A stretch of DNA of 64,000 nt from an uncultured Acidobacteriota bacterium (GTDB lineage: Bacteria > Acidobacteriota > Thermoanaerobaculia > Multivoradales > JAGPDF01), in assembly GCA_963700315.1 (NCBI GenBank), contig CAVOXC010000017.1, positions 28,062 to 92,061 on the forward strand, read 5' to 3'. Both the position numbers and the translations under genes were made by a program. The first letter of the stretch is position 1. Every line of letters starts with the position of its first letter. This document shows positions 9,575 through 64,000 of the stretch, piece by piece. The notes under the pieces are model-generated. The model saw nothing but the letters and a program-made list of their open reading frames with translations, was not told the DNA's origin and made no database searches.

Positions 9575-9735
9575 CAGCGCTCCATCCTGCGCCGGCTCGC
9601 CGGCCGAAGCGCCAATCCGAGCCCCGAGAATCGCCGAGACCTCCAGGCCGAGCGGGGAGTTGTCGAACCAGGTCGTTGGCACCTGTTCGGCGCGGCATCT
9701 CTGCGATTCGGCCCGGAAGGGGGGCCGCGTTCAGT

Positions 9736-10371
9736 CTATGACTCGGAACTCGATTGGGCTTCCATCTGGAAGGCTGCATATCCGGCGAGCGAGATTTGCT
9801 GCGGGATCGCATGCCTATCACAGCATCGATGGGCACGAAGTTGCCCGGATCCAAATCGCCGCCGAGTACGAATGGAACTCTTGGCATCAAACGGAAGCCT
9901 GTCGGCAGGGGTCCGTTGGAGACCTGCCAACGGTGTAAGTGCACAAATCCAGTTAGAGCTTCATATTCTGAGAGAAGCAGCTGGGCCCAGGATTCAAGCG
10001 AGCTGCAAAGCTCCTCCGTTTCACCTGTCGTTGCATCGAAGGAGAGAACACAATCCTCGCGAATGCGGAATTGTTTTCCGAAGGCGTCTTCCGCAAAGAA
10101 GTAGAGCTCCTTTGCTAGGTCGCCATACTCGTAGCGCCACAGGTTCTGGGTATTCCACAACTCGACCGGTATCGAATCGACTGCTGTGCCCGAAGGGAAT
10201 AGATGCAGAGCGCTCTCAAATGCATGGAATCCGTTCTTTCGAGTCTTTTAGTAGGAACCCAAGCTCCTCAAGAAGCGAGGAAGAAACAGAGTCCAAGGGT
10301 GTCTCGCCAGTCGTAGCACGATGACCTAGCGGCTGACTGCCGAGAGACAGGAGTTTCTTGAGCGCAGTCAT
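9736..10371 (-). pseudogene. Candidate RHS-associated immunity protein (SMI1/KNR4 or SUKH-like), disrupted by at least two frameshifts. Sits in a low-GC island just downstream of the RHS C-terminal toxin
   Basis: Minus-strand ATG at 10369-10371 gives MTALKKLLSLGSQPLGHRATTGETPLDSVSSSLLEELGFLLKDSKE. The protein continues in the +1 frame as NGFHAFESALHLFPSGTAVDSIPVELWNTQNLWRYEYGDLAKELYFFAEDAFGKQFRIREDCVLSFDATTGETEELCSSLESWAQLLLSEYEALTGFVHLHRWQ... (the N-part of ORF 9459..10160). A likely second shift leads into frame 9736..9930. Local GC is clearly lower than the flanks. The 3' end is uncertain. Confidence 0.35.
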
Positions 10372-10769
10372 GTACTTTCGGTGCCCACTACTCTACTACC
10401 TCGAGTCTTACCCGCGCTCCGTTTGGTACGCCGGTCAATTGGCGACCAATGGTCGCGCCAGCGCCTCGGTGGTGTCACTCGGATTGATTGGTCGGATGCT
10501 AGAGCCATAGCCCCCCTCAAGGAAGACGGCGGGTGGATATTCATCTCGATCTAGGCTCCTCACCCGCGGGACACCGCGAAGAGCCACAGCCCTTCGCATG
10601 GCAGCGTTGCTTCGATCGACAGTAAGTACCATTGGTTGGCCCGAGGCGACTCTGCATCGTCAATGTGTCTTGCCGCCTGTGGGTACCGCGTCCTGCTGAC
10701 AGTGACTACGCGAGAGGGGCGTCCTCCTTGGGAGTAGTGCTGACGGAGTTCGCCGCCTCCGCGGCAAAA

Positions 10770-13700
10770 TCAGGGCAAGAAGAAGACCTGCCGTGAGGCG
10801 TCTTTCAGGACGTAAAGCGATTCTGAATGGGCACCTTCAAAGAGGAGATCGTCGACAGCGATTGCAAGTGAAGAGAGTACGTGGATACTTGCAGCGATAA
10901 TCGCCACCAGCGCTGCAGCCTTGAAGATCGTTGGCGCGGCTAAAGCAAGCCGAATCGCGATGCCAGTCAGGAGACCTTGAAGAGTCTCGTGGCCGGATGG
11001 ATCTAGATGTGAGAGTGGTTCGCTACCTGCATAGAGATAGCGGTGGAGAGACACTGGTTCTGCTGCAATCCCGAAGAACGCATCCATCGATTGAAATCGG
11101 CCTACGAATGGCTCGAGCCACCTGGCTCGGTTGTAGTAGAAGCCGACGTTCGGGTCGAGCGCTTCTCCTGCGAAGAGGTAGGTGTTGGAATCGTCGCCCT
11201 GGTGGTCGAGCAGGGTTCCAAAGGCCTCGAGGGTGTATCTGTCGGTGACCTCTCCCGCCTGATTCGTGAGTGCCCGAATCGTTCCGATTCCTTCGGCGTG
11301 GAAGTAGCGGGGGATCCAGGCGCCAGGTGTACCTGGGTCGGGGCGTAGGGTGGCGAGGAGGTCGTCGCCTCTGACGTGGTAGGCGGTGAGGGTGCCGCTG
11401 CCGTCGGTTTCGGCGACGACTTGGCTCAAGACGAGGGTTCGGCCCGCGGCGCTGGTCTGGTGCCAGGGGTCGACGAGGTAGTCGACGGTTTGTGGCGGTT
11501 GGCCGGCGGGGGTGGTGACGGTTCGTACTCTCGTGCCGTCGGCGTCGTAGGTGTGGTCGACCGTCGTGCCGTCGGCGAGGGTCACGCGGGTCAGGCGGTT
11601 CTCGTAGTCCCACTCGTAGGTCGCGCCGTCGGGGCCGGTCTTGCCGGTCTGGTTGCCGTTCGGGTCCCAGGCGTAGGTGACTTCGTTCTCGGTCAGGAGG
11701 CGGTCGCGGGTGTCGTAGGTGTAGGCGACCGGGAGCGGGGTGCCGTCGCCCTGCGTGCGAGTCTGCTGGAGTCGATTGCCGACCGGGTCGTAGGTGAAGG
11801 CGTTGCGCCAGGCGGTCGGTGCATCCGGCGCCGTGCCATTCCTCGACGTGCTCGTCGGTCAGGCGGTAGAGCGGGTCGTACCGTAGTGGCGCGTCGTGCC
11901 GTCGTGCTCGACGATCTTGGTGCGGTTGCCGGTGGGGGCGAGGGTGTAGGCGAAGGAGACGATGGTGTCGCCGATGCCGTTGACCGCGGTGAGATCGAGG
12001 AGTCGATTCCTGTTGTCGTAGGCGTAGGAGGTTCCGACCCCGTTGGGGTGGGCGAGCGCCGCGCGGTTGCCGTTGGCGTCGTAGTCGTGGGCGTAGACGC
12101 CGCCGTCGGGGTCGGTGACGCTGTCGAGGCGGTTGAGGTCGTCGTAGCTGTAGGTCGTCGTCAGGAGCTCGCCGGCGACGTTGGCGGTGAGCGTCGTGCG
12201 GTTGCCGGCGAGCGTCGTGGGCGAAGCCGAGAGCGCGGCCGTCGGGATAGGTGATCGCCGTGACCCGGTCGCGCGCGGTCGTAGCCGTAGCTCGTCGTGC
12301 CGCGCGCGTCGACCATCGTCGCGCGCCGGCCGCTCGGCGTGTAGGTGAAGGCGTGGAAGCTGCCGTCGGGGTAGTCGCGCCGGGTCAGGCGGCTCGCGAG
12401 GTCGTAGCTGTAGCGGGTGAGCGCGCCGTCGAAGGCGACGCGGGTCTTCCTCTGGCCGGCGAGGTCGTAGGTGAAACGCTCGGTCGAGCCGCCGGGGAGA
12501 ATGCGCGCGGTCTGGCGGCCGAGGGCGTCGTAGTCGAAGCGGGTGACGTGGCCGTTGGCGTCGGTCTGCGAGATTCGATTGCCGAGCTCGTCGTAGCCGT
12601 AGGACGTGACGCCGCCCAAGGCGTCGGTGACCGCGGTCAGCCGGCCGAGCGCGTCGTAGGCGAACGCCGTCCGCACGCCCGCCTCGTCGATCTCCGCCGT
12701 CCGTCGTCCCAGCGGGTCGTACTCGCTGCGCCGGCTCGTGCCATCCGGGAAGACGGTGCGGACCATGCGGCCGAGCACGTCGTAGAGGAAGAGCGTCGCG
12801 ACGCCGCGCGGGTCGGTGACGCGGGTCTGGTTGCCGGCGGCGTCGTAGGCGAAGGCGGTCGAGCTGGCCGAGCGCGTCGGTGATCGAGAGGCGCCGGCCG
12901 GCGTCGTCGTAGGCGAAGGTGCGTCTCGTGGTCGCGGGCGTCGATCGCGCGCTCGAGCCGGCCGGCGGTGTCGTAGCGCTGTTCGATCTCGGCGCCGTCG
13001 GGGAAGCGGGTGAGGAGGAGCCGGCCGGCGAGGTCGTACACGAGCTCGGTCGAGCGGCCGGCGCGATCGCGGACGAGGGTGCGGCGCCCCTCGGCGTCGT
13101 ACGCGGTTGCTTCCAAGGTGCCGTCCGGGTGGTCGACGCGCGTCTGGCGGCCGAGGTCGTCGTAGGTGAGGGTCGTGCGCCGGCCGAGCGGGTCGACGGT
13201 CGCGGTGACCTGGCCGAGCGCGTCGTACTCGGTCGCGGTGAGCTGAGCCGTCGGGCGCGGTGCTCGAGAGCAGCCGGCCGGCGGCGTCGTAGACGAAGTG
13301 GGTGACGAGCGTCTCGGTGGTGCCGTCGGACCGGGTGCGGCTGCGCGTTTCGGTCCGCCGGTTGCCGGTCGAGTCGTAGGTGAACGTCGCGACGCTGCCG
13401 AGCGCGTCGGTCTCCGGCGAGGAGGTTGCCGCGCGAGTCGTAGGCGTAGCGGCTGATCTCGCCGAGCGGGTCGGTCTCGGTGAGCAGGTTGCCGCGGCTG
13501 TCGTAGGTGTAGGCCGTGAGTTGGCCGGCGGGGTCGGTCGTCTGGAGGAGATTGCTCTTCGAGTCGTAGGCGTTGGCGGTGACGCGTCCGTTGGGATCGG
13601 TCGAGGTGAGGACGTTGCCCTTGGCGTCGTAGGTGAAGGCGGCGACGTTGCCGAGCGGGTCGGTGACCGCGGTGAGGTTGCGGCTCGCGTCGTAGGCGTA

Positions 13701-16664
13701 GAGCGTCGGCGGCAGGTCGGCGATCGCCTCGGTGAGGAGCTGGTCGTCGGCGTCGAAGCGTGCGCGTGGTCGGCGACGCCGGTCTCGTCGATCTCGAGGA
13801 GAACGTTGCCGCGCGCGTCGTAGTAGAGCGAGCGCGAGGCGCCGAGGCGGTTGGTGACGACCTCGAGCCGCTCGCCGATGCGGTGGTCGTAGACGATCTC
13901 GTGGCCGTAGGCGTCGACGTGGCGGGTGAGCCGGCCGTCGGGGCCGTACTCGTTGCGGATCGGCGTGCGGCCGAGCGGGTCTTCGATCTCTTCGAGGTAG
14001 TGGCCGACGGAGTAGCGGATCTCGGTCACCGCGCCGGTGCGGTCGGTGACGGCGACGAGATCGCCGTCGCCGTCGTAGCCGTAGCCGAGCTCGCCGCCGG
14101 CCGGTTCGGTGATCCGCGTCACGCGCCCCTCGCCGTCGCGCTCGAAGGCGATCGAGACGCCGGAGGAGTGGGCGATGCCTCCCGGCGTGAAGGTCAGCGT
14201 GTTGTCGTTGGCGTCGACGATCTTGGTGACGCCGACGCCGCGCTCGAGCTCGAGCTTCCTGCCGTCGCGCGTGGTCAGCCGGACGCGCGCCGGGTGGAAG
14301 AGCTCGAAGCTCTCCGCAGTCGACCAGGCGCGTGTCGCCGTTGGCCCAGAAGACGGTGGTGTTGCCGAGCACCTGGAGGGTCGCGCCCGGCACCGGGCCG
14401 TCGACGAACTGGTAGGAGACGTTGGCGAAGCAACCGCCGCCGGTCGGGGCGAGGCTTCCGAGCACCGGCCGGAAGCGGTAGATCTCGCGATCGGTGAGGC
14501 GAATCGTCGAGAGATGGGGCGCGAGCTCGAGCGCCTGCTGGCAGGGCAGGACGCCGGCGGCGATCCGCCAGTCCGTGCCCGGCACGCGGTTGTGGACGAG
14601 GCTGCCCTGGCGGAGCTCGAGCGTCCAGCCGAAGCCGAAGTCGCCGCGAGCGCTCGCGGCGGCGGCTGTCGTAGCTGCGCAGCACCTGGATCGGCAGGCC
14701 GGCGAGCGGCACCTCGAGGTCGACGAAGGTGAGGGCGAAGTGGCCGATCTTCATCTGGCCGTCGACCACGACGTCGACCACCTGCTCGGCGGTGCGCCCC
14801 AGGGTGTCGGCTGCGGAGAGCCGGAGCTCGTAGAGACCGTTCTCGAGCAGCGTCGGGTCGAAGGTCGCGAGCGGCTGCGCCTCGACCGTGGCGGTGCCCG
14901 TGGCGAGCGGCGATCCAGGCCGGCGTCCCCCTCGGCGCGGAAGAAGAGCTCCCAGCCGGCGAGGGACGGCGAACGGACCGTGCCGACGACGGCCGTCGGC
15001 TCGGTCACCTCGTCGAGATCCGTGGGCGCGAGGATCGAAACCGTCGGCCCGTCGGTCGCGTTCGAGATCGTGAGCGTCGTCGCCGCGGTCGCGTAGATCC
15101 AGTAGCCGCGGCCGGGGCGGAGCTCCGCGAGGTCGTTCGCCCACGCGGGCACCGCCGGGTCGTAGACCTCCCAGGGATCCTCCGGGTCGGTCGGGTCGAA
15201 GCCGAAGACGCGCAGGTACTGACCGGCAATCGAGGCGAGCGCGGCGGCGACCGGTCGTGGCGACGACGCCGGAAAGCCGACGAGATTCCAGCCGAGGCAG
15301 AGCGGGATCGCGGTCTCGACCGGCTCGGGGCCGGCTTCGGGGAGCGTCGTTCCCGCGCTCCCCTCGAGCCAGAAGCCGATCGACGGCGAGATCGCCGCGA
15401 GATCGTAGCCGCCCGGCGCGGCGGGATCCCAGAGCTTCCAGGGATCGGCGAGACATCGCAGGCGTCGAAGGCGTAGACGCGGGAGTACGGCGCCCGCGAT
15501 CGGTGCGAGCACCGCGGCCGGCGCTGGATCGCCCGGGGTCCAGGAGATCGAGAGGAGATTCCAGGCCGGGAGCACCGGGACCGAGACCTCGGGGGTGGCT
15601 GCGAGCAGCTCGAGCGGCGGCGAGGCCTCCCCCTTCCGAACGAGCGAGAAGTCGGGAGGCGACGGCGGCGGCGGAACCTTTGCGAGCGGCGCGCTCGGCG
15701 CGCGCGGCGAGGGGCGCTCGCGGATGCCGTAGGGATCCTCCGGGTCCTGGGCTCGCCCTTCTTCCGTAGCCGATCTCGTCTCTTGCTCGGGCTGGGCGAG
15801 CGGGGGCGCGAAGGCCTCCGCGGGGCCCGCGGAGGCCTTCGAAGCGGCGCCGAGGTAGTTCGCTCGCTGCGAAAGCTTGCTGTTTAGGGGGGAAGGGCCG
15901 GAGATCGTGGCGCTCCGCGGACGGGCGCCGGCGGCGCTCTCGATGCTCGCGGCAAAGCTGGAGCTGCCGAGGCGGCCGTCGGCAGCCGCGGCATGCGAAC
16001 TGCCCACCCCTTCACTGGCAGCTCTCTCGGACCTGGGCCAGGCCCGAGCGGCGTCGGCAGCCGCGGCGAAGGCACGGCCCACCCCTTCACTGGCAGCTCT
16101 CTCGGACCTGGGCCAGGCCCGAGCGGCGTCGGCAGCCGCGACGAAGGCACGGACCACCCCTTCACTGGCAGCCTTCTCGGACCTTGGCCAGGTCTGAGGA
16201 GCGTCGGCAGCCCCGGCGAAGTCTCCGCCCGCCCTTTCACTGGCAATCTTCTCGGACCCTGGCCAGGCCCAAAGAGCATCGGCAGTCGCGACGAAGGCGC
16301 CGCCCACCCCTTCACTGCCAGCTTCTTCCGACCTCGGCCGGGCGCGAACGGCGTCGGCAGTCGCGGCGAGGGTCCGCCCGAGCCAAGACCGAACCAGGGC
16401 GAGCCCGGGCTGGACTCGGTCCGTGGCGAGCTCGAGGGCGGAGACGCGCCGCTGCTCGCCGTCGCGGAGGGTCGCGATGCCGAGCTCAACCGGCAGGCCG
16501 AGACCGAGCAGGGGGCCGGTCGGCAGCAGCGCCGAGGCAAGGAGGACCTTGGCCACCGCCCGCTCGAAGGATCCGAAGCCCGACCGGAAGCCGCCCGCCC
16601 CGCCCCGGCCGCCGCCATCCCCGATCGAACGGTCTCTTCCCCGGTCCCCTATCGCTCGCCCCAT
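10770..16664 (-). pseudogene. RHS/YD-repeat toxin gene (~1960 codons) broken by at least 8 frameshifts. Parts: N-terminal 25-aa tandem repeats, an RHS N-region, many YD repeats, the RHS core end motif, and a short hydrophobic C-terminal toxin module
   Basis: Fragments in several minus frames. 14751..16664 has the N-terminus MGRAIGDRG... with WPRSERAASEGVGRAFAAAADAARA repeats. 14275..15456 has ...VDLEVPLAGLPIQVLRSYDS. Frames 11859..14585, 12161..14122 and 12637..13116 are dense in YD repeats (TYAYDASRNLTAVTDPLGNVAAFTYDAKGNVLTSTDPNGRVT..., GYGYDGDGDLVAVTDRTG..., YSYDDLNRLDSVTDPDGGVYAHDYDANGNR...). 10770..11585 carries the last YD repeat YNRARWLEPFVGRFQSMD and the core-end motif HRYLYAGSEPLSHLDPSGH (matches N.Y.Y..N.P....DPxGL). 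A ~70-aa hydrophobic C-terminal module TLQGLLTGIAIRLALAAPTIFKAAALVAIIAASIHVLSSLAIAV... follows. Confidence 0.7.
15920..16340 (-). repeat. About five tandem copies of a 75-bp (25-codon) repeat inside the N-terminal region of the RHS gene
   Basis: Plus strand: cccaccccttcactggcagctctctcggacctgggccaggcccgagcggcgtcggcagccgcggcgaaggcacgg recurs with period 75 starting near 16004 and 16079, with more diverged copies on either side. Encodes AWPRSERAASEGVGRAFAAAADAAR-type units. Confidence 0.7.
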
Positions 16665-19156: not shown

Positions 19157-20067
19157 GGCGTCCCCCCTTCCTCGAGCGTCGTGACGATGCCGGCCTCGAC
19201 CTCCAGCGGATTCGGCTTGTAGATCTTCATGTAGACGAAGGGCTCCCGACAGGTGTCGAGCAGCTCTTGCAGGCGTGGGTGCCAGGCGAGTGGCAGCGCG
19301 TTGACGGCCGGAGCGCCGGAGACGATGCCGGCGCAAGCGAAGCTCTCGAGCAGGAGCTGGGTGCGCTCCCCCTCGATGTCCCCCGGGTGGGCGACGAGGC
19401 GGCGATCGAGGCGATTCTGGAAACGGACCTCGATCTCCGACTCGGCTTTGGCCTTGAGCCCCTTGAGCGGCAGGTAGAGCTTCTGCAGCGCGGCGTCGGG
19501 CGCGAGCGATTTCGAGACGACGATCTCCGAGAGGAAGCGCTCCTCGAGCGCCCGCATGGCGTCGGCGTCCTCGGCGACACGGTGCGCCAGCTCGGCGACC
19601 TTGGCGACGAGCTCCGTGGCGGTCATCTCGGGCGCGGCGAGGTCGCAGAGCGCCGAGAGCTCCAGCTCCGGGTAGGTCCAGGCGACGATGCCCCCACGCT
19701 CTGCCCGGAATCGCGCGCGGACCGAGGGCGGATCGCACGCGCCGCTCGGACCGTCGGCGAGGAGCAGTACCCAGCGCGGCGCGTCCGCCACGGCGTCTGG
19801 CGCCGCCGGCGTCCAGTCGAGGTAGAGGAAGCTCGCGTGCGCGATGCGCGCGAGCTCGGTCTCGACCGCCGCGACGACCTCCGGTGTGGTCAGGCGCGTC
19901 TGGTCCAGGGTCGAGCCCGGCTCGATCCGGAGCTCGACGAGCACCTGACGCAGAGGCTGGGCGGTCGCGGGCAGCGCGACGAGGAGCGCGGCCGCGACCA
20001 GCGGCGCGAACCGACGGCGCGGCCGCTCAGAGGTTCGCGGCGGGTTCGACGAACACCAGGTCGACAT
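19153..20067 (-). CDS. Hypothetical secreted protein (304 aa). Overlaps the 3' end of the CHAT gene by 41 nt and the start of the TPR gene by 4 nt
   Basis: MSTWCSSNPPRTSERPRRRFAPLVAAALLVALPATAQP is a signal peptide. Clean ORF with normal complexity and good GC3 bias. Confidence 0.55.
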   Translation of the reverse strand: MSTWCSSNPPRTSERPRRRFAPLVAAALLVALPATAQPLRQVLVELRIEPGSTLDQTRLTTPEVVAAVETELARIAHASFLYLDWTPAAPDAVADAPRWVLLLADGPSGACDPPSVRARFRAERGGIVAWTYPELELSALCDLAAPEMTATELVAKVAELAHRVAEDADAMRALEERFLSEIVVSKSLAPDAALQKLYLPLKGLKAKAESEIEVRFQNRLDRRLVAHPGDIEGERTQLLLESFACAGIVSGAPAVNALPLAWHPRLQELLDTCREPFVYMKIYKPNPLEVEAGIVTTLEEGGTP

Positions 20068-33764: not shown

Positions 33765-35804
33765 ATGAGGGCAACGAACCGCGGAGTGAAGGCTGGTGTT
33801 CTGATCGCGATGCTCGCGGCGGTTCCCGCCTGGGGGCAGGTCGACGCCTTCTGGCGCGATGCTCTCGTTCGACGACGTCCTAGAGAGCGCCGCGGCGGGG
33901 GAGCGGCGGATCGCTCCCGACCGGGCTCGTTTCGTGCGGCTCGATGCCGGGGCGCTCGCGGTGCTGCTGGCCACCGCGCCCGCCGAGGCGGCGGTGCCCG
34001 GCGGCCTGGCGGGCGTCGAGCTGTCGATTCCCGATCCCGACGGCGTCGTGCGCAGCTATCGCGTCGTCGATTCGCCGGTGATGGCGCCCGGGCTCGCGGC
34101 GCAGTATCCCGAGTGGCGGACCTTCCGGCTGATCGACACGGCCGACGCCCGCTACGGTGGCCGCGGCGACTGGACGCTGCACGGCTTTCACGCGCTGGTG
34201 CGCACGCCCGCCGGGACGCTCTTCGTGGATCCGGTCTGGCAGGGCGATACCGAGCTCTACCAGGTCTACTTCAAGGCCGATCTCGCGCCGCCGCGCGGAC
34301 CAGGTCTTCCGCTGCGACACGGACGATGCCGAGGCGGATCTCGCCGCCGGCACCGAAGCGCCGGAGGCGCCCGCGGTCGATCTCGATCTGCGCACCTACC
34401 GGCTGGCGCTCGCCGCGACCGGCGAGTACACCACGTTCCACGGCGGCACCGTGGCGGCGGGGCAAGCGGCGATCGTCACCGCGGTCAACCGGGTCAACGA
34501 GGTCTACGAGCGCGACCTGGCGATCCGGATGGTCCTGGTCGCCAACAACAGCCTGGTGGTCTACACCAACGGCGCGACCGACCCCTACACGAACAACAAC
34601 GGCGTGACGATGCTGGGGCAGAACACGGCGAACCTCAACGCCGTGATCGGCACGGCGAACTACGACATCGGCCACGTCTTCTCGACCGGCGGCGGCGGTG
34701 TCGCGACCCTCAACGGCCCCTGCGGCAGCAACAAAGCGCGTGGGGTGACGGGGCTCTCTTCGCCGATCGGCGACGGTTTCTACATCGACTACGTCGCCCA
34801 CGAGATGGGGCACCAGTGGGGCGGCTCGCACACCTTCAACGGCTCGACCGGCAGCTGTGCCGGCGGCAACCGCGTCGGCGTCCTCCGCCTACGAGCCGGG
34901 GAGCGGCTCGACGATCATGGCCTACGCTGGCATCTGCGGCGCCGAGAACCTGCAGCCGCACAGCGACGCCTATTTCCACCGCCGCAGTCTCGACCAGATC
35001 GAGACCTACAGCCGCACCGGCAACGGGGATACTTGCAAGGCGGTCGTCGCCCAGAGCAACGCGCAGCCGGTGGCCGACGCCGGAGCGGACTACACGATTC
35101 CGATCTCGACGCCCTTTGCGCTCACCGGGTCGGCGACCGACGGCAACGGCGGCGTTCTCGACTACTGCTGGGAACAGTGGGATCTCGGTCCGGCCGGCCC
35201 GGCCATCTCGGGCGACGCGCCGATCTTCCGTTCCTTCGATCCCGGTGCCGGGCCCGCGCCGGACGTTTCCCAAGGTGGAGGACCTCGTCGACGGCACGCC
35301 GACGATCGGCGAGACCCTTCCCACCTACGCCCGCACCATGCACTTCCGGTTGACGGCGCGCGACAACCAGCTCCCGGCGGGCGCGGAGGGGTCCGACCAG
35401 ACCGCGATCACGGTGAGCGCCGCGGCCGGCCCGTTCCTTGTCACCGCGCCGAACACGGCGGTGGTCTGGAACGGCCCCGGACCGCACACGCGTAACCTGG
35501 AACGTCGCCAACACCAACGCGGCGCCGGTCTCCTGCGCCACTGTCGACATCGACCTCTCGACCGACGGCGGCTTCGACTTCGACCAGTCGCTCGCGGTCA
35601 ACCTGCCCAACGACGGCAGCGAGCACGGTCTACGCCGGCGCCGGCGACACGGCGACGGCGCGGATCCGCGTCGCCTGCCGCGGCAACGTCTTCTTCGACA
35701 TCTCGAACGTCGACTTCTCGATCGCCGGAGCGAGCGGCCTGCTGTTCGCCGACAACTTCGAGTCGAGCGACACCACACGCTGGAGCCTGACCGAGAACCC
35801 CTGA
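33765..35804 (+). pseudogene. Secreted reprolysin-like (M12B-type) zinc metalloprotease with a C-terminal beta-rich domain. At least 5 frameshifts
   Basis: Signal MRATNRGVKAGVLIAMLAAVPAWGQ. Fragments across frames (33859..35790, 34157..35353, 34857..35495, 35438..36094, plus a final frame ending TGA 35802-35804): ...[20 protein letters not shown]..., ...[12 protein letters not shown]...[10 protein letters not shown]...[11 protein letters not shown]...[22 protein letters not shown] (HExxHxxGxxH), ...[10 protein letters not shown]..., ...ARDNQLPAGAEGSDQTAITVSAAAGPFLVTAPNTAVVW..., ...VACRGNVFFDISNVDFSIAGASGLLFADNFESSD. Confidence 0.6.
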
Positions 35805-36869: not shown

Positions 36870-38198
36870 ATGAATCGGATCGAGGCGGCGCGTTGGCTCG
36901 ACGCGATGCCGGATGCCGTGGTGGTCGTCGCGGCGGACGGCCGGATCGTGCAAGCCAACGAACGCTGCGAGAGCCTGCTCGGCTGGTCCCCCGGCGAGCT
37001 CGAAGGGCGGCCGCTCGCGCTGCTCGTGCCGGAGCGCTTCGTCGAGCACGAGGCAGAGCACGAGCGCTACTTCGCGGCGCCGGCGGTGCGGCAGATGGGA
37101 ACCGGGCTGGAGCTTCGCGCCCGCCATCGCGATGGCCGGGAGGTCACTGTCGACATCGCGTTGAGCCCGCTCGAAGTCGATGGCGGCAACTACGTCGTGG
37201 CGTCGATCCGCGACGCCAGCGCCCAGCGTGCGCACCTCGAGGAGCTGCGCCTGAAGTCGATCGCGCTCGACCATGCGGCGAGCGGAATCGTGATCACCGA
37301 CCTGCGCGGGGTCATCCTCTGGGTCAACCGCGCCGCGGCGCGAATGACGGGTTACGAGCGCGAGGAGTTGATCGGTCGCACGCCCAGCCTGCTCAAGTCG
37401 GGTGAGCACGACGACGCCTTCTACCGCGGGCTCTGGACGGAGATTCGAGCGGGGCGCACCTGGCAGGGCGCGATCGTCAACCGCCGGAAGGACGGATCGC
37501 ACTATCACGAGGAGCAGACGATCGCGCCCGTGCGCGACGCCGAGGGGCGGGTGAGCCACTACATCGCGGTCAAACAGGACGCCAGTGAACGTGTCGCCGC
37601 CGAGCAGTCGCTGCGCCGAGCGCACGACGACCTCGCCCGCTACGTCACCGAGATCGAGGCGCTGCAGGCGCGATTGCGAGAGCAGGCGATTCACGACCCG
37701 CTGACCGGGTTGTTCAACCGGCGCTATCTCGACGAGGCGCTGGCGCGCGAGGTAGCGCGCGCTCAGCGCGAACGCACGCCGTTGACGATCGCGATGATCG
37801 ACCTCGACCATTTCAAGGGGATCAACGACAGCCATGGCCATCCGGCGGGCGACCGGCTGCTCGTCGCGCTCGGTCGGATTCTGCTCGTGCAGAAACGAGC
37901 CGCCGACTTCGCCTGCCGCTTCGGCGGTGAGGAGTTCGTGGTCGTGTTGGTGGGGGCGGCCCTCGCCGGGGGGCTGGCGCGCTCGGAGGAGTGGCGGCGG
38001 AGCTACGCGGGCCTGGCGATGGACGCGGAGGCCGGACCCGTCGGGGCGACGCTCTCGATCGGCGTGGCCGAGCTCTGCCCCGACGAGCTCTCCACCGCCT
38101 TCCTGGCTCGCGCCGACGCCGCCCTCTATGCAGCCAAGGCGGCGGGGCGCGACCGCGTCGTCGCCGCCTCTCTTCCGGACGTCGACGGGGAGTCGTGA
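36870..38198 (+). CDS. PAS-domain diguanylate cyclase (PAS-PAS-GGDEF)
   Basis: Two PAS domains (DAVVVVAADGRIVQANERCESLLGW...; AASGIVITDLRGVILWVNRAAARMTGYE...) then GGDEF: TGLFNRRYLDE...DLDHFKGINDSHGHPAGD...RFGGEEFVVVL. Clean 442-aa ORF. Confidence 0.85.
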   Translation: MNRIEAARWLDAMPDAVVVVAADGRIVQANERCESLLGWSPGELEGRPLALLVPERFVEHEAEHERYFAAPAVRQMGTGLELRARHRDGREVTVDIALSPLEVDGGNYVVASIRDASAQRAHLEELRLKSIALDHAASGIVITDLRGVILWVNRAAARMTGYEREELIGRTPSLLKSGEHDDAFYRGLWTEIRAGRTWQGAIVNRRKDGSHYHEEQTIAPVRDAEGRVSHYIAVKQDASERVAAEQSLRRAHDDLARYVTEIEALQARLREQAIHDPLTGLFNRRYLDEALAREVARAQRERTPLTIAMIDLDHFKGINDSHGHPAGDRLLVALGRILLVQKRAADFACRFGGEEFVVVLVGAALAGGLARSEEWRRSYAGLAMDAEAGPVGATLSIGVAELCPDELSTAFLARADAALYAAKAAGRDRVVAASLPDVDGES

Positions 38199-38310
38199 GC
38201 AGGCGCCGGGTGACCTGAGGTCGAGAGCCGAGGTCAGGAGACAATCGCTTGGCGCGGTGGTCGCGGCGCGCCTGTGGGATGCTCCGGGGATTCATGGGAG
38301 CCCGAGACAC

Positions 38311-40582
38311 ATGATCGAAGCCCTGCGTCGCCCCGTCGCCCGCCTCGCGCTCGCCGCGCTCGTCCTGCCGCTCGCGCCCATCGCCGGCGATTCCGCACCG
38401 CCACCGATGCTCGGCTTCTCGGCCGCGGCCGCCGCCGCCGAGCGCGCGCGGGAGGCGCAGCTCGACGCCGCGCTCGCGCCGGCCGAGATGCGCGGCTGGC
38501 TCGAGCGGCTCGCTGCTCGCCCGCACCATGTCGGCTCGGCGTGGGGCCGTTCGAACGCCGAGTGGCTGCGCGATCTCTTCGCCGGCTGGGGCTTCGAGAC
38601 GCGCATCGAGACCTTCCAGGTGCTCTTTCCGACGCCGGTCGAGCGCTCGGTCGAGCTCCTGGCGCCGACGCGCTTCCGGGCGAAGCTGGAGGAGCCGGCG
38701 CTCGCCGAGGACTCGACCTCGGGGCAGAAGAGCGAGATCCTGCCGACCTTCAACGCCTACTCGATCGACGGCGACGTCACCGGCGAGCTGGTCTACGTCA
38801 ACCAGGGTCTCCCGCGCGACTACGAGGAGCTCGCCGAGCGCGGCATCGACGTCAAGGGCAAGATCGTGCTGGCGCGCTACGGTGGCTCCTGGCGCGGCAT
38901 CAAGCCCAAGGTCGCGGCGGAGCAGGGCGCCATCGGCTGCCTGATCTACTCCGACCCGCGCGGCGACGGCTACTTCGAGGGCGACGTCTATCCGCAGGGG
39001 GGCTACCGCGGACGCGAGTCGGTGCAGCGCGGCTCGGTCGCCGACATGCCGATCTACTCGGGCGACCCGCTCACTCCGGGAGTCGCCGCGACGGCGGATG
39101 CCGAGCGCCTTGCGCTCGACCAGGTGAAGGTGCTCACGAAGATCCCGGTCCTGCCGCTCTCCTACGGCGACGCCCAGCCGCTGCTCGCGGCGCTGGGCGG
39201 GCCGGTGGCGCCCGAGAGCTGGCGCGGCGCGCTGCCGCTCACCTACCACCTCGGCCCGGGCCCGGCGCGCGTGCGCCTGCGCGTGAAGTTCGACTGGAGC
39301 CTGAAGCCGGTCCACGACGTGATCGCGGTGCTGCCCGGCGCGAGCGCGCCCGACGAGTGGGTGGTGCGCGGCAACCACCACGACGCCTGGGTCCACGGCG
39401 CCACCGATCCGGTCTCGGGCCTGGTCGCGCTGCTCGCCGAGGCCAAGGCCGTCGGCGAGCTCGCGCGCGGCGGTTGGCGTCCGGCGCGTACGCTGGTCTA
39501 CGCCGCCTGGGACGGCGAGGAGCCGGGCCTGATCGGCTCGACCGAGTGGGCCGAAGCCCACGCCGAGGAGCTGCGGGCGAAGGCGGTCGCCTACCTCAAC
39601 ACGGACTCGATCACCCGCGGCTTTCTCGGTCTCGCCGGCTCGCACACGCTCGAGCGCTACGTCAACGAGGTCGCGCGCGACGTCGTCGATCCGCAGAGAG
39701 GCGTCTCGGTGCTCGAGCGGGCCCGCGCCGCGCGCGTCGCGCGCGCCGGCGACGACGAGGCGAAACGTCGCCTGCGCGACCAGGAGGATCTGCGGATCGG
39801 CGCGCTCGGCTCCGGCTCCGACTTCACGCCCTTCCTGCAGCATCTCGGCATCGCCTCGCTCAATCTCGATTTCGGCGGCGAGGAGCGAGTACGGCCAGTA
39901 CCACTCGGGCTACGACTCGATCGCCCACTACCTTCGATTCGGCGATCCGGACTTCGCCTACGTCGCCGCGGCCGCGCGCACCGGCTTGCGCCTCAGCCTG
40001 CGACTGGCCGAAGCCGAGGTGCTGCCCCTCACCCTCGACCGCGCCGCCGCGGCGATCGGCGAGTACGTCGAAGAGATCGAGAAGTTGACGGTGACGATGC
40101 GGCGCGAGAGCGAGGAGCGCGCCCGCCTGCTCGCCGACAGGACGCTCGAGCTCGCCGCCGATCCGACCAAGACCTTCGTGCCGCCGCCGGCGCTCGACCG
40201 CGTGCCCTTCCTCGAGCTGGCGCCGCTCCAGAACTCCGCCGCCCTGCTCGACGAGGCGGCGAAGCGCTTCGAGCGGGCGCGGCAGGCGGCTGTCGAGCGC
40301 GGTCTGGCGCCCGAGCGGCGTGCCGAGCTCAACGCTTTTCTGCGCGGCTTCGAGCGCCGCCTGACGAGCGCCGCCGGACTGCCCGGCCGCCCCTGGTACC
40401 GCCACCAGATCTATGCGCCCGGCCAGTACACCGGCTACGGTGTCAAGACGCTACCGGCGATCCGCGAGGCGATCGAGCTCCGACGCTGGGACGAGGCCAA
40501 CGCTCAGATCGTCGTCGTCGCGAAGCTGCTCGACGACGCTCGCGTGGCGATCGACGACATCACCGCCCGCCTGGCCGGCTGA
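38311..40582 (+). CDS. PSMA/transferrin-receptor-like M28 peptidase (PA domain + M28 + TFR-dimerisation domain), secreted. One frameshift at ~39885
   Basis: Signal MIEALRRPVARLALAALVLPLAPIAG. PA-domain segment (GKIVLARYGGSWRGIKPKVAAEQGAIGCLIYSDP). M28 metal-ligand region (RGNHHDAWVHGATDPVSG...AAWDGEEPGLIGSTEW...NTDS). After a single-G insertion (...FGGE|EYGQYHSGYDSIAHYLRFGDPDF...) the frame continues as 39986..40582, with the C-terminal domain PWYRHQIYAPGQYTGYGVKTLPAIREAIE. Confidence 0.7.
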
Positions 40583-40617
40583 CGACGGCTCCGCCGGCCA
40601 GGTGGATCGGACGGCCA

Positions 40618-41649
40618 TCAGCCGCCGAGCCCGGGCCGGTGGTGGATGGTGATCCCGGTGCGGCCGAGGGCGCGGTCGATGTAGACCGCCACCGCCGCCT
40701 CGCCGCCGCCGGCGAGCTCGACGATGAAGAGCCTCGGATCGCCGAAGAGCTCGGAGTCGTCGTAACCGTCGGCAAGGTACGGATCCAGCGCGCTGTGCCC
40801 CGCGGCCTGGGCGAGCGCCGCCGCCTGCTGCTCGGGCGTCGCGTTCGGGTTCGCCGCCATCGCGCCCATCATCTTCTCGGCCATCGCCATCGCCTTCGCC
40901 ATCTGATCGGCCGAGGGCATGCCGTCCTCGGAGTCCGCCTCGTCGTCGCTCGAAGCGTCCTCGCCCGCGCTCTCGACCTCCTGGCGAAACTGCGCCGGCG
41001 TGAACGGTCCGCGCCCCTTCTTCGACAGCGCCCCGAGGAGCTTCGCGGGCGCCTCCGCGGTCGAGTAAGTGGCGCGCCCGTCGGCGGCGTCGCTGGCGAA
41101 GTAGAGGTAGACAGCGTCACTCGGGAGCGCGACCCCGAGCTTGGGCGCCGGCGGAACGGCGTCGGGGGTGAGGGCGGCCTCGTTCCCCCGGTCGAAAGCG
41201 TCCGCGCGGTGCGCGAGCCGTTGCGCCGACTCGTCGTTGCTGCCGCGCAGAGCGTGCAGAGCGGCGGCGCGGACCGCGGCGACCGGATCGTCGAGCAGCT
41301 CGGCGAGAATCGGCGTCGCGCTGGCCGTGGCGTAGGGCTGCGCGAGGGCGTCGGCCGCGGCCGCGCGCAGCTCGGGAGAGCCCGAGTCGGCGGCGCGCGT
41401 CGCGAGCGAGGTCGCGAGCTCCGGCCGGTAGCGCGCCAGCGCGACGAGCCGTTGCGCGGCCGCGCGGCCGGCCGCGCCGAGCTCCTCGACGCAGGCCGGA
41501 GAGGTGCGGGCGGCGCAGGCCGCCGCGAGCCGGTCGGTGGCGTACTCGATGCCGATCGGTTGCACGAAGCGCTCGCTGGCCGGGGCCGGGGCGGCGGTGA
41601 GGGCGATCAGAAGAGCGGCGAGATAGACCGAGGCGTTGGAACGAGTCAT
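40618..41649 (-). CDS. Secreted HEAT/ARM-like repeat protein with an acidic segment
   Basis: Start MTRSNASVYLAALLIALTAAPAPASE (signal; codon 39 of ORF 40618..41763). HEAT-like units (ILAELLDDPVAAVRAAALHALRG). An acidic stretch AGEDASSDDEADSEDGMPSADQMAKAMAMAEKMM. Start is 2 nt after the upstream gene's stop. Confidence 0.55.
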   Translation of the reverse strand: MTRSNASVYLAALLIALTAAPAPASERFVQPIGIEYATDRLAAACAARTSPACVEELGAAGRAAAQRLVALARYRPELATSLATRAADSGSPELRAAAADALAQPYATASATPILAELLDDPVAAVRAAALHALRGSNDESAQRLAHRADAFDRGNEAALTPDAVPPAPKLGVALPSDAVYLYFASDAADGRATYSTAEAPAKLLGALSKKGRGPFTPAQFRQEVESAGEDASSDDEADSEDGMPSADQMAKAMAMAEKMMGAMAANPNATPEQQAAALAQAAGHSALDPYLADGYDDSELFGDPRLFIVELAGGGEAAVAVYIDRALGRTGITIHHRPGLGG

Positions 41650-41651
41650 GG

Positions 41652-42479
41652 TCACTTCCCCTGCCGCGGTCGCGCGAGCGGGCTCTTTGGCGCCGGCTTC
41701 GGCGGGCCGTTGGCGATGATCGAGTCGATCAGATAGCCGAGCAGCTCGGCGTTCCTGTCCCACGGCAGCTTGGCGCTGTCACACGAGCGCTCCTTGCAAG
41801 CGAGCGCTGACTGCAGGCGAACCTGCTCGAGCGTCGAGATCTCGGCGTCGTACCCGGGCACCTCGCCCGCGGCAACCTGAGCTGGAGTCAGCGCCTTGGT
41901 CTGCCCCGCCTCGTGTCGTGCCTTGCAGTCCGCGACGTGCTTCTCTTCGTGGGCCCTGGTCGCGAGCCCGATCCCCTCACAGGCGGCGACTTTCGGGATG
42001 AGGTCCATGGCGTTGGCGTTGGCCACGCAGTTCTCGATATCGGTCTTGACGCTGTAGCTGGTCCCGAGCAGCCTGCCGGCGTCGTCGCGACGGACGATGA
42101 AGCCGGCCGACTGGAATGCGCGCGACTCGGCGTAGCACTGGTCCTTGGTCGGGATGAAGTAGTTGCAGGTGTCGAGGCCGTCGAGCGACGCGACCCGGAT
42201 CGCCTCGGCGGCGGCGCCCATCTTCTTCTCCTCGGCCTCGTAGTCGGCGAGCGTCAGGTTCTTCCGTTTGGCGATCTGGCGGTAGAACTCCTGCTGGTAC
42301 TTGGCCTTGAGGATCTCGGCCTCGAGGCAGGCGAGCTTGCAGCAGTCAGCGCAGCTCTGCGGCTGCGCCTCCTTGCAGTCGGGCGCCATCGACTGCGCCC
42401 TGGTGGGCGAGGGAGCGACCGCCGCGGCGAGGACGCCGATCAGCAAGAGGGCCGCGCGCGGTCGGGTGGAGGGGTTCAT
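41652..42479 (-). CDS. Hypothetical secreted cysteine-containing protein. Lower GC than its neighbours
   Basis: Start MNPSTRPRAALLLIGVLAAAVAPSPTRAQS (signal). Lys-rich and Cys-containing (CKEAQPQSCADCCKLAC...). Its start overlaps the upstream gene's stop by 4 nt (ATGA). Confidence 0.55.
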   Translation of the reverse strand: MNPSTRPRAALLLIGVLAAAVAPSPTRAQSMAPDCKEAQPQSCADCCKLACLEAEILKAKYQQEFYRQIAKRKNLTLADYEAEEKKMGAAAEAIRVASLDGLDTCNYFIPTKDQCYAESRAFQSAGFIVRRDDAGRLLGTSYSVKTDIENCVANANAMDLIPKVAACEGIGLATRAHEEKHVADCKARHEAGQTKALTPAQVAAGEVPGYDAEISTLEQVRLQSALACKERSCDSAKLPWDRNAELLGYLIDSIIANGPPKPAPKSPLARPRQGK

Positions 42480-60981: not shown

Positions 60982-61025
60982 TCTTCGCGACCGAGACGGC
61001 GATCACCAGGTCGAGCGCTGCCGGA

Positions 61026-64000
<2,975 letters not shown>

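Follow-up and report, generated by a model that had tools for sequence, protein, structure and literature searches.

We analyzed a 64,000-nt stretch of DNA (the window) from contig CAVOXC010000017.1 of an uncultured Acidobacteriota bacterium (assembly GCA_963700315.1), in which an earlier note had placed an Rhs polymorphic toxin gene with a downstream immunity gene. The listing of open reading frames (ORFs) and a reading in all three frames revealed one long coding region on the minus strand that extends from an ATG at 16664 to ~9731 with repeated changes of frame. After correction, it resolves into an Rhs gene of ~6.3 kb, compared to the 5.9 kb estimated earlier, and an immunity gene separated from it by 16 nt (Table 1). 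The variable C-terminal toxin region (CT) of the Rhs protein consists of a hydrophobic linker and a NucA/NucB-type domain predicted to be a DNase, and the frameshifts that interrupt both genes most likely stem from mistakes in the deposited sequence. The GC content is ~0.71 over the N-terminal region and core of the Rhs gene and 0.70-0.72 in the flanks, but only 0.585 for the CT and 0.538 for the immunity gene. The low-GC stretch that had been remarked upon is therefore real, and it identifies these two parts as a cassette that is exchanged horizontally.

Table 1. Coordinates of features in the window.
Feature	Position	Strand	Details
Rhs polymorphic-toxin gene, reconstructed	10388..16664	-	~2,084 codons after correction; stop TAG 10388-10390 included
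N-terminal hydrophobic segment AVAKVLLASALLPTGPLLGLGLP	16491..16559	-	Signal- or anchor-like; kept near the N-terminus in 10 of 10 homologs inspected
75-nt (25-aa) tandem repeat	15967..16369	-	5.3 copies, in frame; Tandem Repeats Finder
Two copies of a ~85-aa domain (…GWNLVGFP…DPWEVYDP…GYWI…)	15066..15581	-	Three-frame reading and N-termini of homologs
N-terminal Rhs motif FVDLEVPLAGLPIQVLRSYDS	14665-14727	-	Kept in P0010
YD/RHS-repeat shell	11229..14160	-	PF05593 RHS_repeat, 22 matches, E = 1.6e-128, on corrected protein
Rhs-associated core domain	10989..11228	-	TIGR03696 Rhs_assc_core, 54.5 bits (cut-off 32.5); found on raw ORFs
Motif YYNRARWLEPFVGRFQSMD	11082-11138	-
Core-end motif HRYLYAGSEPLSHLDPSG	10992-11045	-
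Hydrophobic linker (pre-toxin module)	10773..10988	-	Alignable with its counterparts in P0001 and P0002
Spacer and NucA/NucB-type DNase domain (predicted activity)	10391..10772	-	Spread over three frames; DRDEYPPA at 10528-10551
Immunity gene	9731..10371	-	212 codons plus stop; frameshifts at ~10240 and ~9797
18 frameshifting indels, N-terminal region and core	11844..15932	-	+1 nt at 15932, 15492, 14923, 14912, 14649, 14317, 13771, 13760, 13415, 13241, 12921, 12864, 12275, 12211 and 11844; +2 nt at 15455; -1 nt at 15890 and 11884; MAFFT alignment of window, L004 and L005, with which codon-usage Viterbi segmentation agrees
6 frameshifts, CT and immunity gene	9797..10772	-	CT: +1 nt at ~10772, two surplus nt (or -1 nt) at ~10725, ~10648 and ~10472; immunity gene: +1 nt at both sites; frameshift-aware protein-to-DNA alignment to P0001, the L001 immunity protein and P0128
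Tle1-like/DUF2235, S8 subtilase, MBL-like and CHAT genes	20027-26735	-	Four consecutive genes in the same frame; stop-to-ATG gaps of 18-27 nt
Fungalysin-type M36 metallopeptidase with FTP propeptide	27269-29897	+	Six or more frameshifts, of which five are +1
Reprolysin-like M12B peptidase	33853-35801	+	Frames +0→+1→+2→+0→+1→+2; five consecutive +1 shifts
1,300-aa ORF with PA and M28 peptidase domains	37834-41736	+	Only M28 profile positions 2-98 of 193
Hybrid sensor histidine kinase	61003-63810	-	PAS/GAF/HisKA, PAS_4 and HATPase_c/REC in three frames

The Rhs protein and its C-terminal toxin

The Rhs identity of the gene was confirmed by the repeats, the core domain and collinearity with intact homologs, and the three sequence motifs on which the earlier assignment had been built are all present. 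Partial matches to the RHS_repeat family were already found in the raw, uncorrected ORFs. A query stitched from the pieces of the core retrieved thousands of Rhs proteins, the named ones mostly from Thermoanaerobaculia and other Acidobacteriota; the best were P0008 (1,861 aa, 88% identity) and P0009 (1,908 aa, 78%), the latter also with 22 PF05593 matches. In tblastn comparisons the window was collinear with both proteins from residue ~30 to the end of the core, with the matches scattered over all three frames, and the start codon at 16664 aligned with the start codons of two intact homologs. A MAFFT alignment with the genes of P0008 and P0009 (L004 and L005) gave DNA identities of 88% and 80%, respectively, and homology to both ended at ~11110, as expected for the start of the variable CT. 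The flanks of L004 and L005 were not syntenic with the window, and the nearest match in a scan of genome contigs was 72% identical (Acidobacteria bacterium BJ1, L009).

As deposited, the ORF that spans the end of the core stops at 10770, and the earlier note had read the resulting ~70-aa hydrophobic tail as the entire toxin, with membrane depolarization a better fit than nuclease activity. The stop codon at 10770 is brought in frame by the additional nucleotide at ~10772, and the CT runs instead from 10988 to 10391 (~200 aa), with the hydrophobic segment followed by a complete NucB-type domain. The first clue was a DRDEYPPA…EGG motif that lies downstream of 10770 in a different frame and was accompanied by a weak PF14040 match. 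In a frameshift-aware protein-to-DNA alignment, the corrected CT reads stop-free to …VRLEVVE and then into the TAG of the Rhs gene. This sequence matched the NucB entries 5omt and 6ejs of the PDB with E = 1e-22 in phmmer, over 97 residues (10-106 of 110), and a profile of the CT family matched 5omt with E = 6e-37. A stitched CT query retrieved an intact orphan toxin, P0001 (257 aa, 50% identity, 100% coverage, E = 9e-50), that passes the Pfam cut-off for PF14040 (28.5 vs 23.8 bits), and further relatives P0002, P0004 and P0005. The window CT has lost none of the 28 columns that are invariant in the family alignment. By sequence membership and the conserved motifs DRDEYP, GG.G and D.RGAG, the CT is a NucA/NucB-type (PF14040) domain with predicted DNase activity. 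A literature search for NucB-type Rhs toxins returned only false matches ("NucBlue") and the unrelated Tox-NucA, which has an HNH fold (PMC3482391), and the protein collection searched (its sources include JGI/IMG, ENA, Logan and NCBI) contained no second copy of the CT.

The idea that the toxin is a short membrane-depolarizing peptide ending at 10770 drew on the 40 residues after the DPSG motif, which are strongly hydrophobic, with a Kyte-Doolittle average of up to 2.39 over 19 residues. However, the same module in P0001 and P0002 runs stop-free into a NucB domain, and the window does likewise once the +1 at ~10772 is removed; accordingly, the hydrophobic stretch (10854-10973) is a linker that precedes the DNase domain and not the toxin. 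Moreover, the linker of P0001 is less hydrophobic (maximum 1.48) and falls below the usual transmembrane threshold, hydrophobic stretches after DPxG are also found in relatives with unrelated toxins, and the predicted fold of the immunity protein is nearest to that of immunity proteins for DNase effectors. We therefore regard a peptide toxin as scarcely credible. In the C-termini of P0009-P0023, the 30-60 residues after DPxG were hydrophobic or amphipathic regardless of the toxin downstream, which suggests that a pre-toxin module is shared in this Rhs clade. A further reading, which we consider improbable, is that the module is an undescribed membrane-translocation domain for nuclease payloads.

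The core ends in a cleavage-type DPSG motif (10992-11003), within a SEPLSHLDPSG sequence (10992-11024) of the PxxxxDPxG type. At the other end of the protein, the conserved hydrophobic segment suggests Sec-dependent export. The 25-aa repeat (AWPRSE[KR]AASEGV…) varies in copy number: the window carries 225 nt, or three units, more than the 88% identical L004, and the repeat is mostly missing from P0009. The ~85-aa domains had no Pfam match, and the first copy is interrupted by the frameshifts at ~15492 and ~15455. Neither the Rhs gene nor its immediate surroundings showed a PAAR, VgrG or chaperone signature (Pfam domain scans for PAAR and VgrG).

The immunity gene

The corrected immunity protein is 212 aa long and stop-free; in the deposited sequence, two frameshifts distribute it over three frames, in agreement with the earlier note. 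Both its position directly downstream of the toxin gene and its likeness to SUKH/SMI1 proteins had been anticipated, and both were supported. We found 269 full-length homologs, the best with 100% coverage, 45-53% identity and E-values down to 4e-61; several of these are named SMI1/KNR4 by NCBI. In a Pfam scan of 62 full-length homologs, PF09346 (SMI1_KNR4) was detected in 53 (best E = 3.8e-8), T6SS_Tdi1_C (PF08906) in 12 and SUKH_6 in nine. The PF08906 matches were weak (best E = 2e-4), short of membership by sequence, and a profile of the family matched the Tdi-type structure 6itw with E = 0.59. A homolog that is 53% identical to the window protein, P0128, scored 26.1 bits for PF09346, above the cut-off of 25.4.

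To this sequence evidence a predicted structure can be added. The AlphaFold model of P0128 (pLDDT 92.7) was matched by Foldseek to Tdi2 (8fzz_B, E = 2.5e-6), Atu4351 (6itw, 8.6e-6) and Tdi1 (8g0k_B, 2.2e-5), in each case with probability 1.00, over 202-215 aligned columns and with TM values of 0.6-0.7. Tdi2, Atu4351 and Tdi1 are immunity proteins of Ntox15 DNase effectors of type VI secretion systems (T6SS). The SUKH structures YobK, Knr4 and BF1740 matched weakly (E = 0.1-0.2, TM 0.4-0.6, ~140 columns for YobK and Knr4). The assignment as a SUKH-type (SMI1/KNR4) immunity gene is thus supported, and the modeled fold appears closest to immunity proteins for DNase effectors, which fits a nuclease toxin.

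The pairing itself recurs elsewhere. In L001/L002 and L003, a homologous toxin is directly followed by a gene of 204-214 aa that is homologous to the window immunity gene. The L001 immunity protein carries a weak SMI1_KNR4 flag, is 51% identical to the window over 10241-9801, and resumes in another frame to 9734. In L001 (638-3103) and L003 (109-3028) the NucB-type toxin and immunity pair is an orphan cassette that has no Rhs shell; the former follows a phage-type integrase and the latter lies beside a DDE transposase. The orphan toxin P0001 retains a remnant DPSG motif.

Frameshifts in the locus and the rest of the window

Frameshifts interrupt both genes as deposited, and in the rhs gene they far outnumber the "at least 8" lesions that had been counted. 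We mapped ~24 frameshifts in 6.9 kb (~1 per 290 nt), with 18 in the N-terminal region and core, four in the CT and two in the immunity gene. As deposited, the Rhs gene, with 22 of these, has no uninterrupted reading frame, and its sole large indel is the in-frame gain of 225 nt. Public gene calls on the contig are fragmentary (P0003, which is the window's 271-aa ORF, and P0248), indicating that the lesions are present in the deposited record.

Once the 18 small indels were removed or patched, the resulting 1,796 codons contained 0 stops, nor was there any in the corrected CT or immunity gene. About 2.6% of random substitutions in the ORF would make a stop, and the probability of 0 stops is ~0.002 at 240 neutral substitutions. 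At some ten substitutions per indel, neutral accumulation of 24 indels would be accompanied by a few hundred substitutions and 6-12 stops. With L005 as outgroup, window-specific substitutions were distributed 44/32/87 over codon positions 1, 2 and 3, compared to 48/36/97 in the lineage of the intact L004. The two patterns are indistinguishable (chi-square p = 0.99) and depart from 1:1:1 (p = 2e-7), indicating that the window lineage has been under the same purifying selection. Natural bacterial indels favor deletions and repeats. By contrast, the single-base events here comprise 18 insertions and two deletions (p = 4e-4), and of the 13 insertions of one base for which flanks were listed (14923-11844), 11 do not lie beside an identical base. 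No shared sequence motif was seen at the insertion sites in the flanks listed from the L004/L005 alignment. Gene-fragmenting indels are a known trait of long-read assemblies (PMC12007338). We therefore attribute the ~24 frameshifts, as the most likely explanation, to assembly error and not to biological inactivation, and they most likely represent patchy single-base insertion noise of the kind seen in a poorly polished long-read consensus. It follows that the organism most likely carries an intact toxin and immunity pair that is predicted to be functional.

The damage is not confined to this locus: at least four other, unrelated genes of the window are likewise read in pieces from different frames. 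The M36 peptidase is collinear with intact homologs (P0249, P0250 and P0252) over frames 2→3→1→2→1→2→3, with frameshift sites at ~27.9, 28.17, 28.39, 28.74, 29.07 and 29.14 kb. In the M12B peptidase, Reprolysin_4 profile positions 3-155 and 159-192 fall in separate ORFs in differing frames. The codon position of maximal GC in the hybrid histidine kinase jumps in step with the frame changes of its domains; its 935-aa ORF is open in the wrong frame solely through high GC. The Tle1-like lipase gene has one frameshift at ~26.2 kb, with profile positions 1-148 and 209-287 in differing frames. An ORF of 2,178 aa (20334-26870) that overlaps this gene and its neighbors is the coding frame for its first ~600 nt only. 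The gene with PA and M28 domains is probably frameshifted too, as its coding frame changes at ~38.2 and ~39.9 kb. A codon-usage Viterbi segmentation trained on Pfam-verified genes recovered the shifts in the Rhs gene and detected series of successive +1 shifts in other places, for instance one of five at 34.3-35.6 kb and one of four at 61.9-62.9 kb. Outside the locus it identified at most 39 frameshift-like switches, an upper bound since some are gene boundaries. Apparently unbroken are the S8 subtilase, CHAT and DPP-IV genes, a second kinase, a TPR gene and a beta-lactamase-like gene. The intact relative P0008 offers a parallel outside the window: its gene L004 has, opposite window position 11251, a +1 (C) of its own that both the window and L005 lack, and as a result the last ~135 residues of P0008 are an out-of-frame reading that contains no true toxin domain. 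The name of the L004 contig, in our impression, presumably follows long-read assembly naming.

Genuine pseudogenisation, as proposed in the earlier note, would mean that the toxin and immunity genes are dead and decaying, perhaps amid genome-wide gene loss. It would account for ~24 frameshifts in 6.9 kb of deposited sequence and for the fragmentary public gene calls, and the breakage of other accessory genes beside intact neighbors could mimic selective loss of dispensable functions. However, we found no nonsense mutations and no large deletions, and the intact-like codon-position pattern implies that almost no neutral substitutions arose alongside the 24 indels. Furthermore, the 9:1 excess of single-base insertions, located outside repeats, runs opposite to the deletion bias that bacteria usually show, and 6-24 lesions per gene in several genes are atypical of bacterial pseudogenes; pseudogenisation is therefore improbable. 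A mixed case, in which most indels are errors and some compensating pairs (15932/15890, 15492/15455, 11884/11844 and 10772/10725) are real variants that produce short recoded patches, strikes us as more doubtful still. In its favor, 8 of the 23 intervals between events are <65 nt and four such close pairs restore the frame, L004 has its own +1, and the outgroup L005 does not polarize the 15932/15890 pair: it does not have that stretch, and the pair may have arisen in the window or in the homolog. In every pair, however, the shifted-frame translation of the window equals the in-frame peptide of the homologs, as errors predict, and four other close pairs leave the frame unrestored. Slimmer again is the chance that the single-base insertions are real, with dozens of +1 lesions in patches of accessory genes and no accompanying substitutions; if true, this would point to a mutational process that is unusual in being insertion-specific, to gene inactivation in a very recent burst, or to some recoding mechanism by which the lesions are tolerated.

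We consider it highly probable that the locus is a standard Rhs polymorphic toxin and immunity pair of an Acidobacteriota-like (Thermoanaerobaculia-like) organism and that its frameshifts are sequence errors. The earlier note had named assembly error as what would overturn its pseudogene reading; this is now the favored explanation, on the strength of the stop-free correction, the codon-position pattern, the indel bias and the split genes elsewhere in the window, all read from the assembled sequence. Several observations pull the other way. The case for artefact is an inferential one built on sequence comparison. The noise is unevenly distributed: several long genes escape it, and the density of frameshifts in the Rhs locus is several-fold above the window average; strain-variable regions or uneven polishing could, at a guess, produce such patchiness. 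An insertion bias outside homopolymers is atypical of nanopore errors. The protein collection searched contained no second assembly of the same strain, and exact-sequence look-ups with P0003 and the neighboring beta-lactamase-like protein returned no record. With respect to the module assignments, the window CT scored 15.3 bits for PF14040, under the cut-off of 23.8, the corrected immunity protein had no Pfam match at E ≤ 0.1, PF09346 included, and a scan of both sequences against NCBIfam gave nothing above cut-off. The PF14040 and PF09346 assignments accordingly derive from closer homologs, PDB sequences and fold.

Relation to known systems

By analogy with characterized Rhs toxins (PMC8636562), the YD-repeat shell would encapsulate the toxin, and autoproteolysis at the DPxG motif would free it. 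Once delivered, the NucB-type domain may degrade the DNA of competitor cells. The immunity protein, with its putative SMI1/KNR4 (SUKH) N-domain and Tdi1_C-like C-domain, would bind the DNase and protect the producer.

We compared the locus with Rhs/YD-repeat toxins of three kinds, the T6SS-associated Rhs of Photorhabdus (PMC8636562), the Rhs effectors of Serratia (PMC4524185) and WapA-type proteins of Gram-positive bacteria (PMC12704120). Common to these and the window are the YD-repeat shell, a core with DPxG at its end, a C-terminal toxin that varies, an adjoining downstream immunity gene and a cassette of foreign GC content. Unlike them, the window gene has no PAAR, VgrG or chaperone signature in it or beside it, its N-terminus contains the hydrophobic signal-like segment, the tandem repeat and the two uncharacterized ~85-aa domains, and its host is an uncultured Acidobacteriota-like organism. 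The CT shares DRDE(Y/W)P, EGG.G and SD.RGAG with the secreted DNase NucB of Bacillus (5omt, 6ejs; PF14040, DNase_NucA_NucB). In contrast to free secreted NucB, the domain is the payload of an Rhs protein, follows a hydrophobic module of ~100 aa and is paired with a SUKH/Tdi-like immunity protein.

The immunity protein resembles two groups. The modeled homolog superposes on Tdi2, Tdi1 and Atu4351 of the Tde/Tdi T6SS pairs (8fzz, 8g0k, 6itw; PF08906) over ~200 columns, and the partner is a DNase in both cases, as predicted from sequence for the window. However, the window toxin is NucB-type and not Ntox15, identity to the Tdi proteins is only 12-14%, and most members of the family score for SMI1_KNR4 and not as GAD-like. 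Among the immunity proteins of polymorphic toxins, no superfamily is more widespread than SUKH, and its partners include many nuclease families (PMC3482391). With the SUKH-1 immunity protein YobK of B. subtilis (2prv), the family shares PF09346 (in the 53 homologs above) and its position directly downstream of a toxin. Unlike YobK and Knr4, it has an extra C-terminal domain; the fold match is weak (E ~0.1), and the window sequence itself has no Pfam match.

In this locus, reading to the first stop codon made a predicted DNase look like a membrane peptide, and in this contig "heavily frameshifted pseudogenes" most likely reflect how the sequence was assembled and not the genes themselves. Claims of pseudogenes, gene loss or short ORFs drawn from the window, or from any part of the 136.8-kb contig, deserve little weight pending a check of the reads. 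What is new is one more combination of Rhs payload and immunity protein, a predicted NucB-type DNase with SUKH/Tdi-like immunity, in a poorly studied phylum. It is unsurprising, and of value for toxin catalogs.

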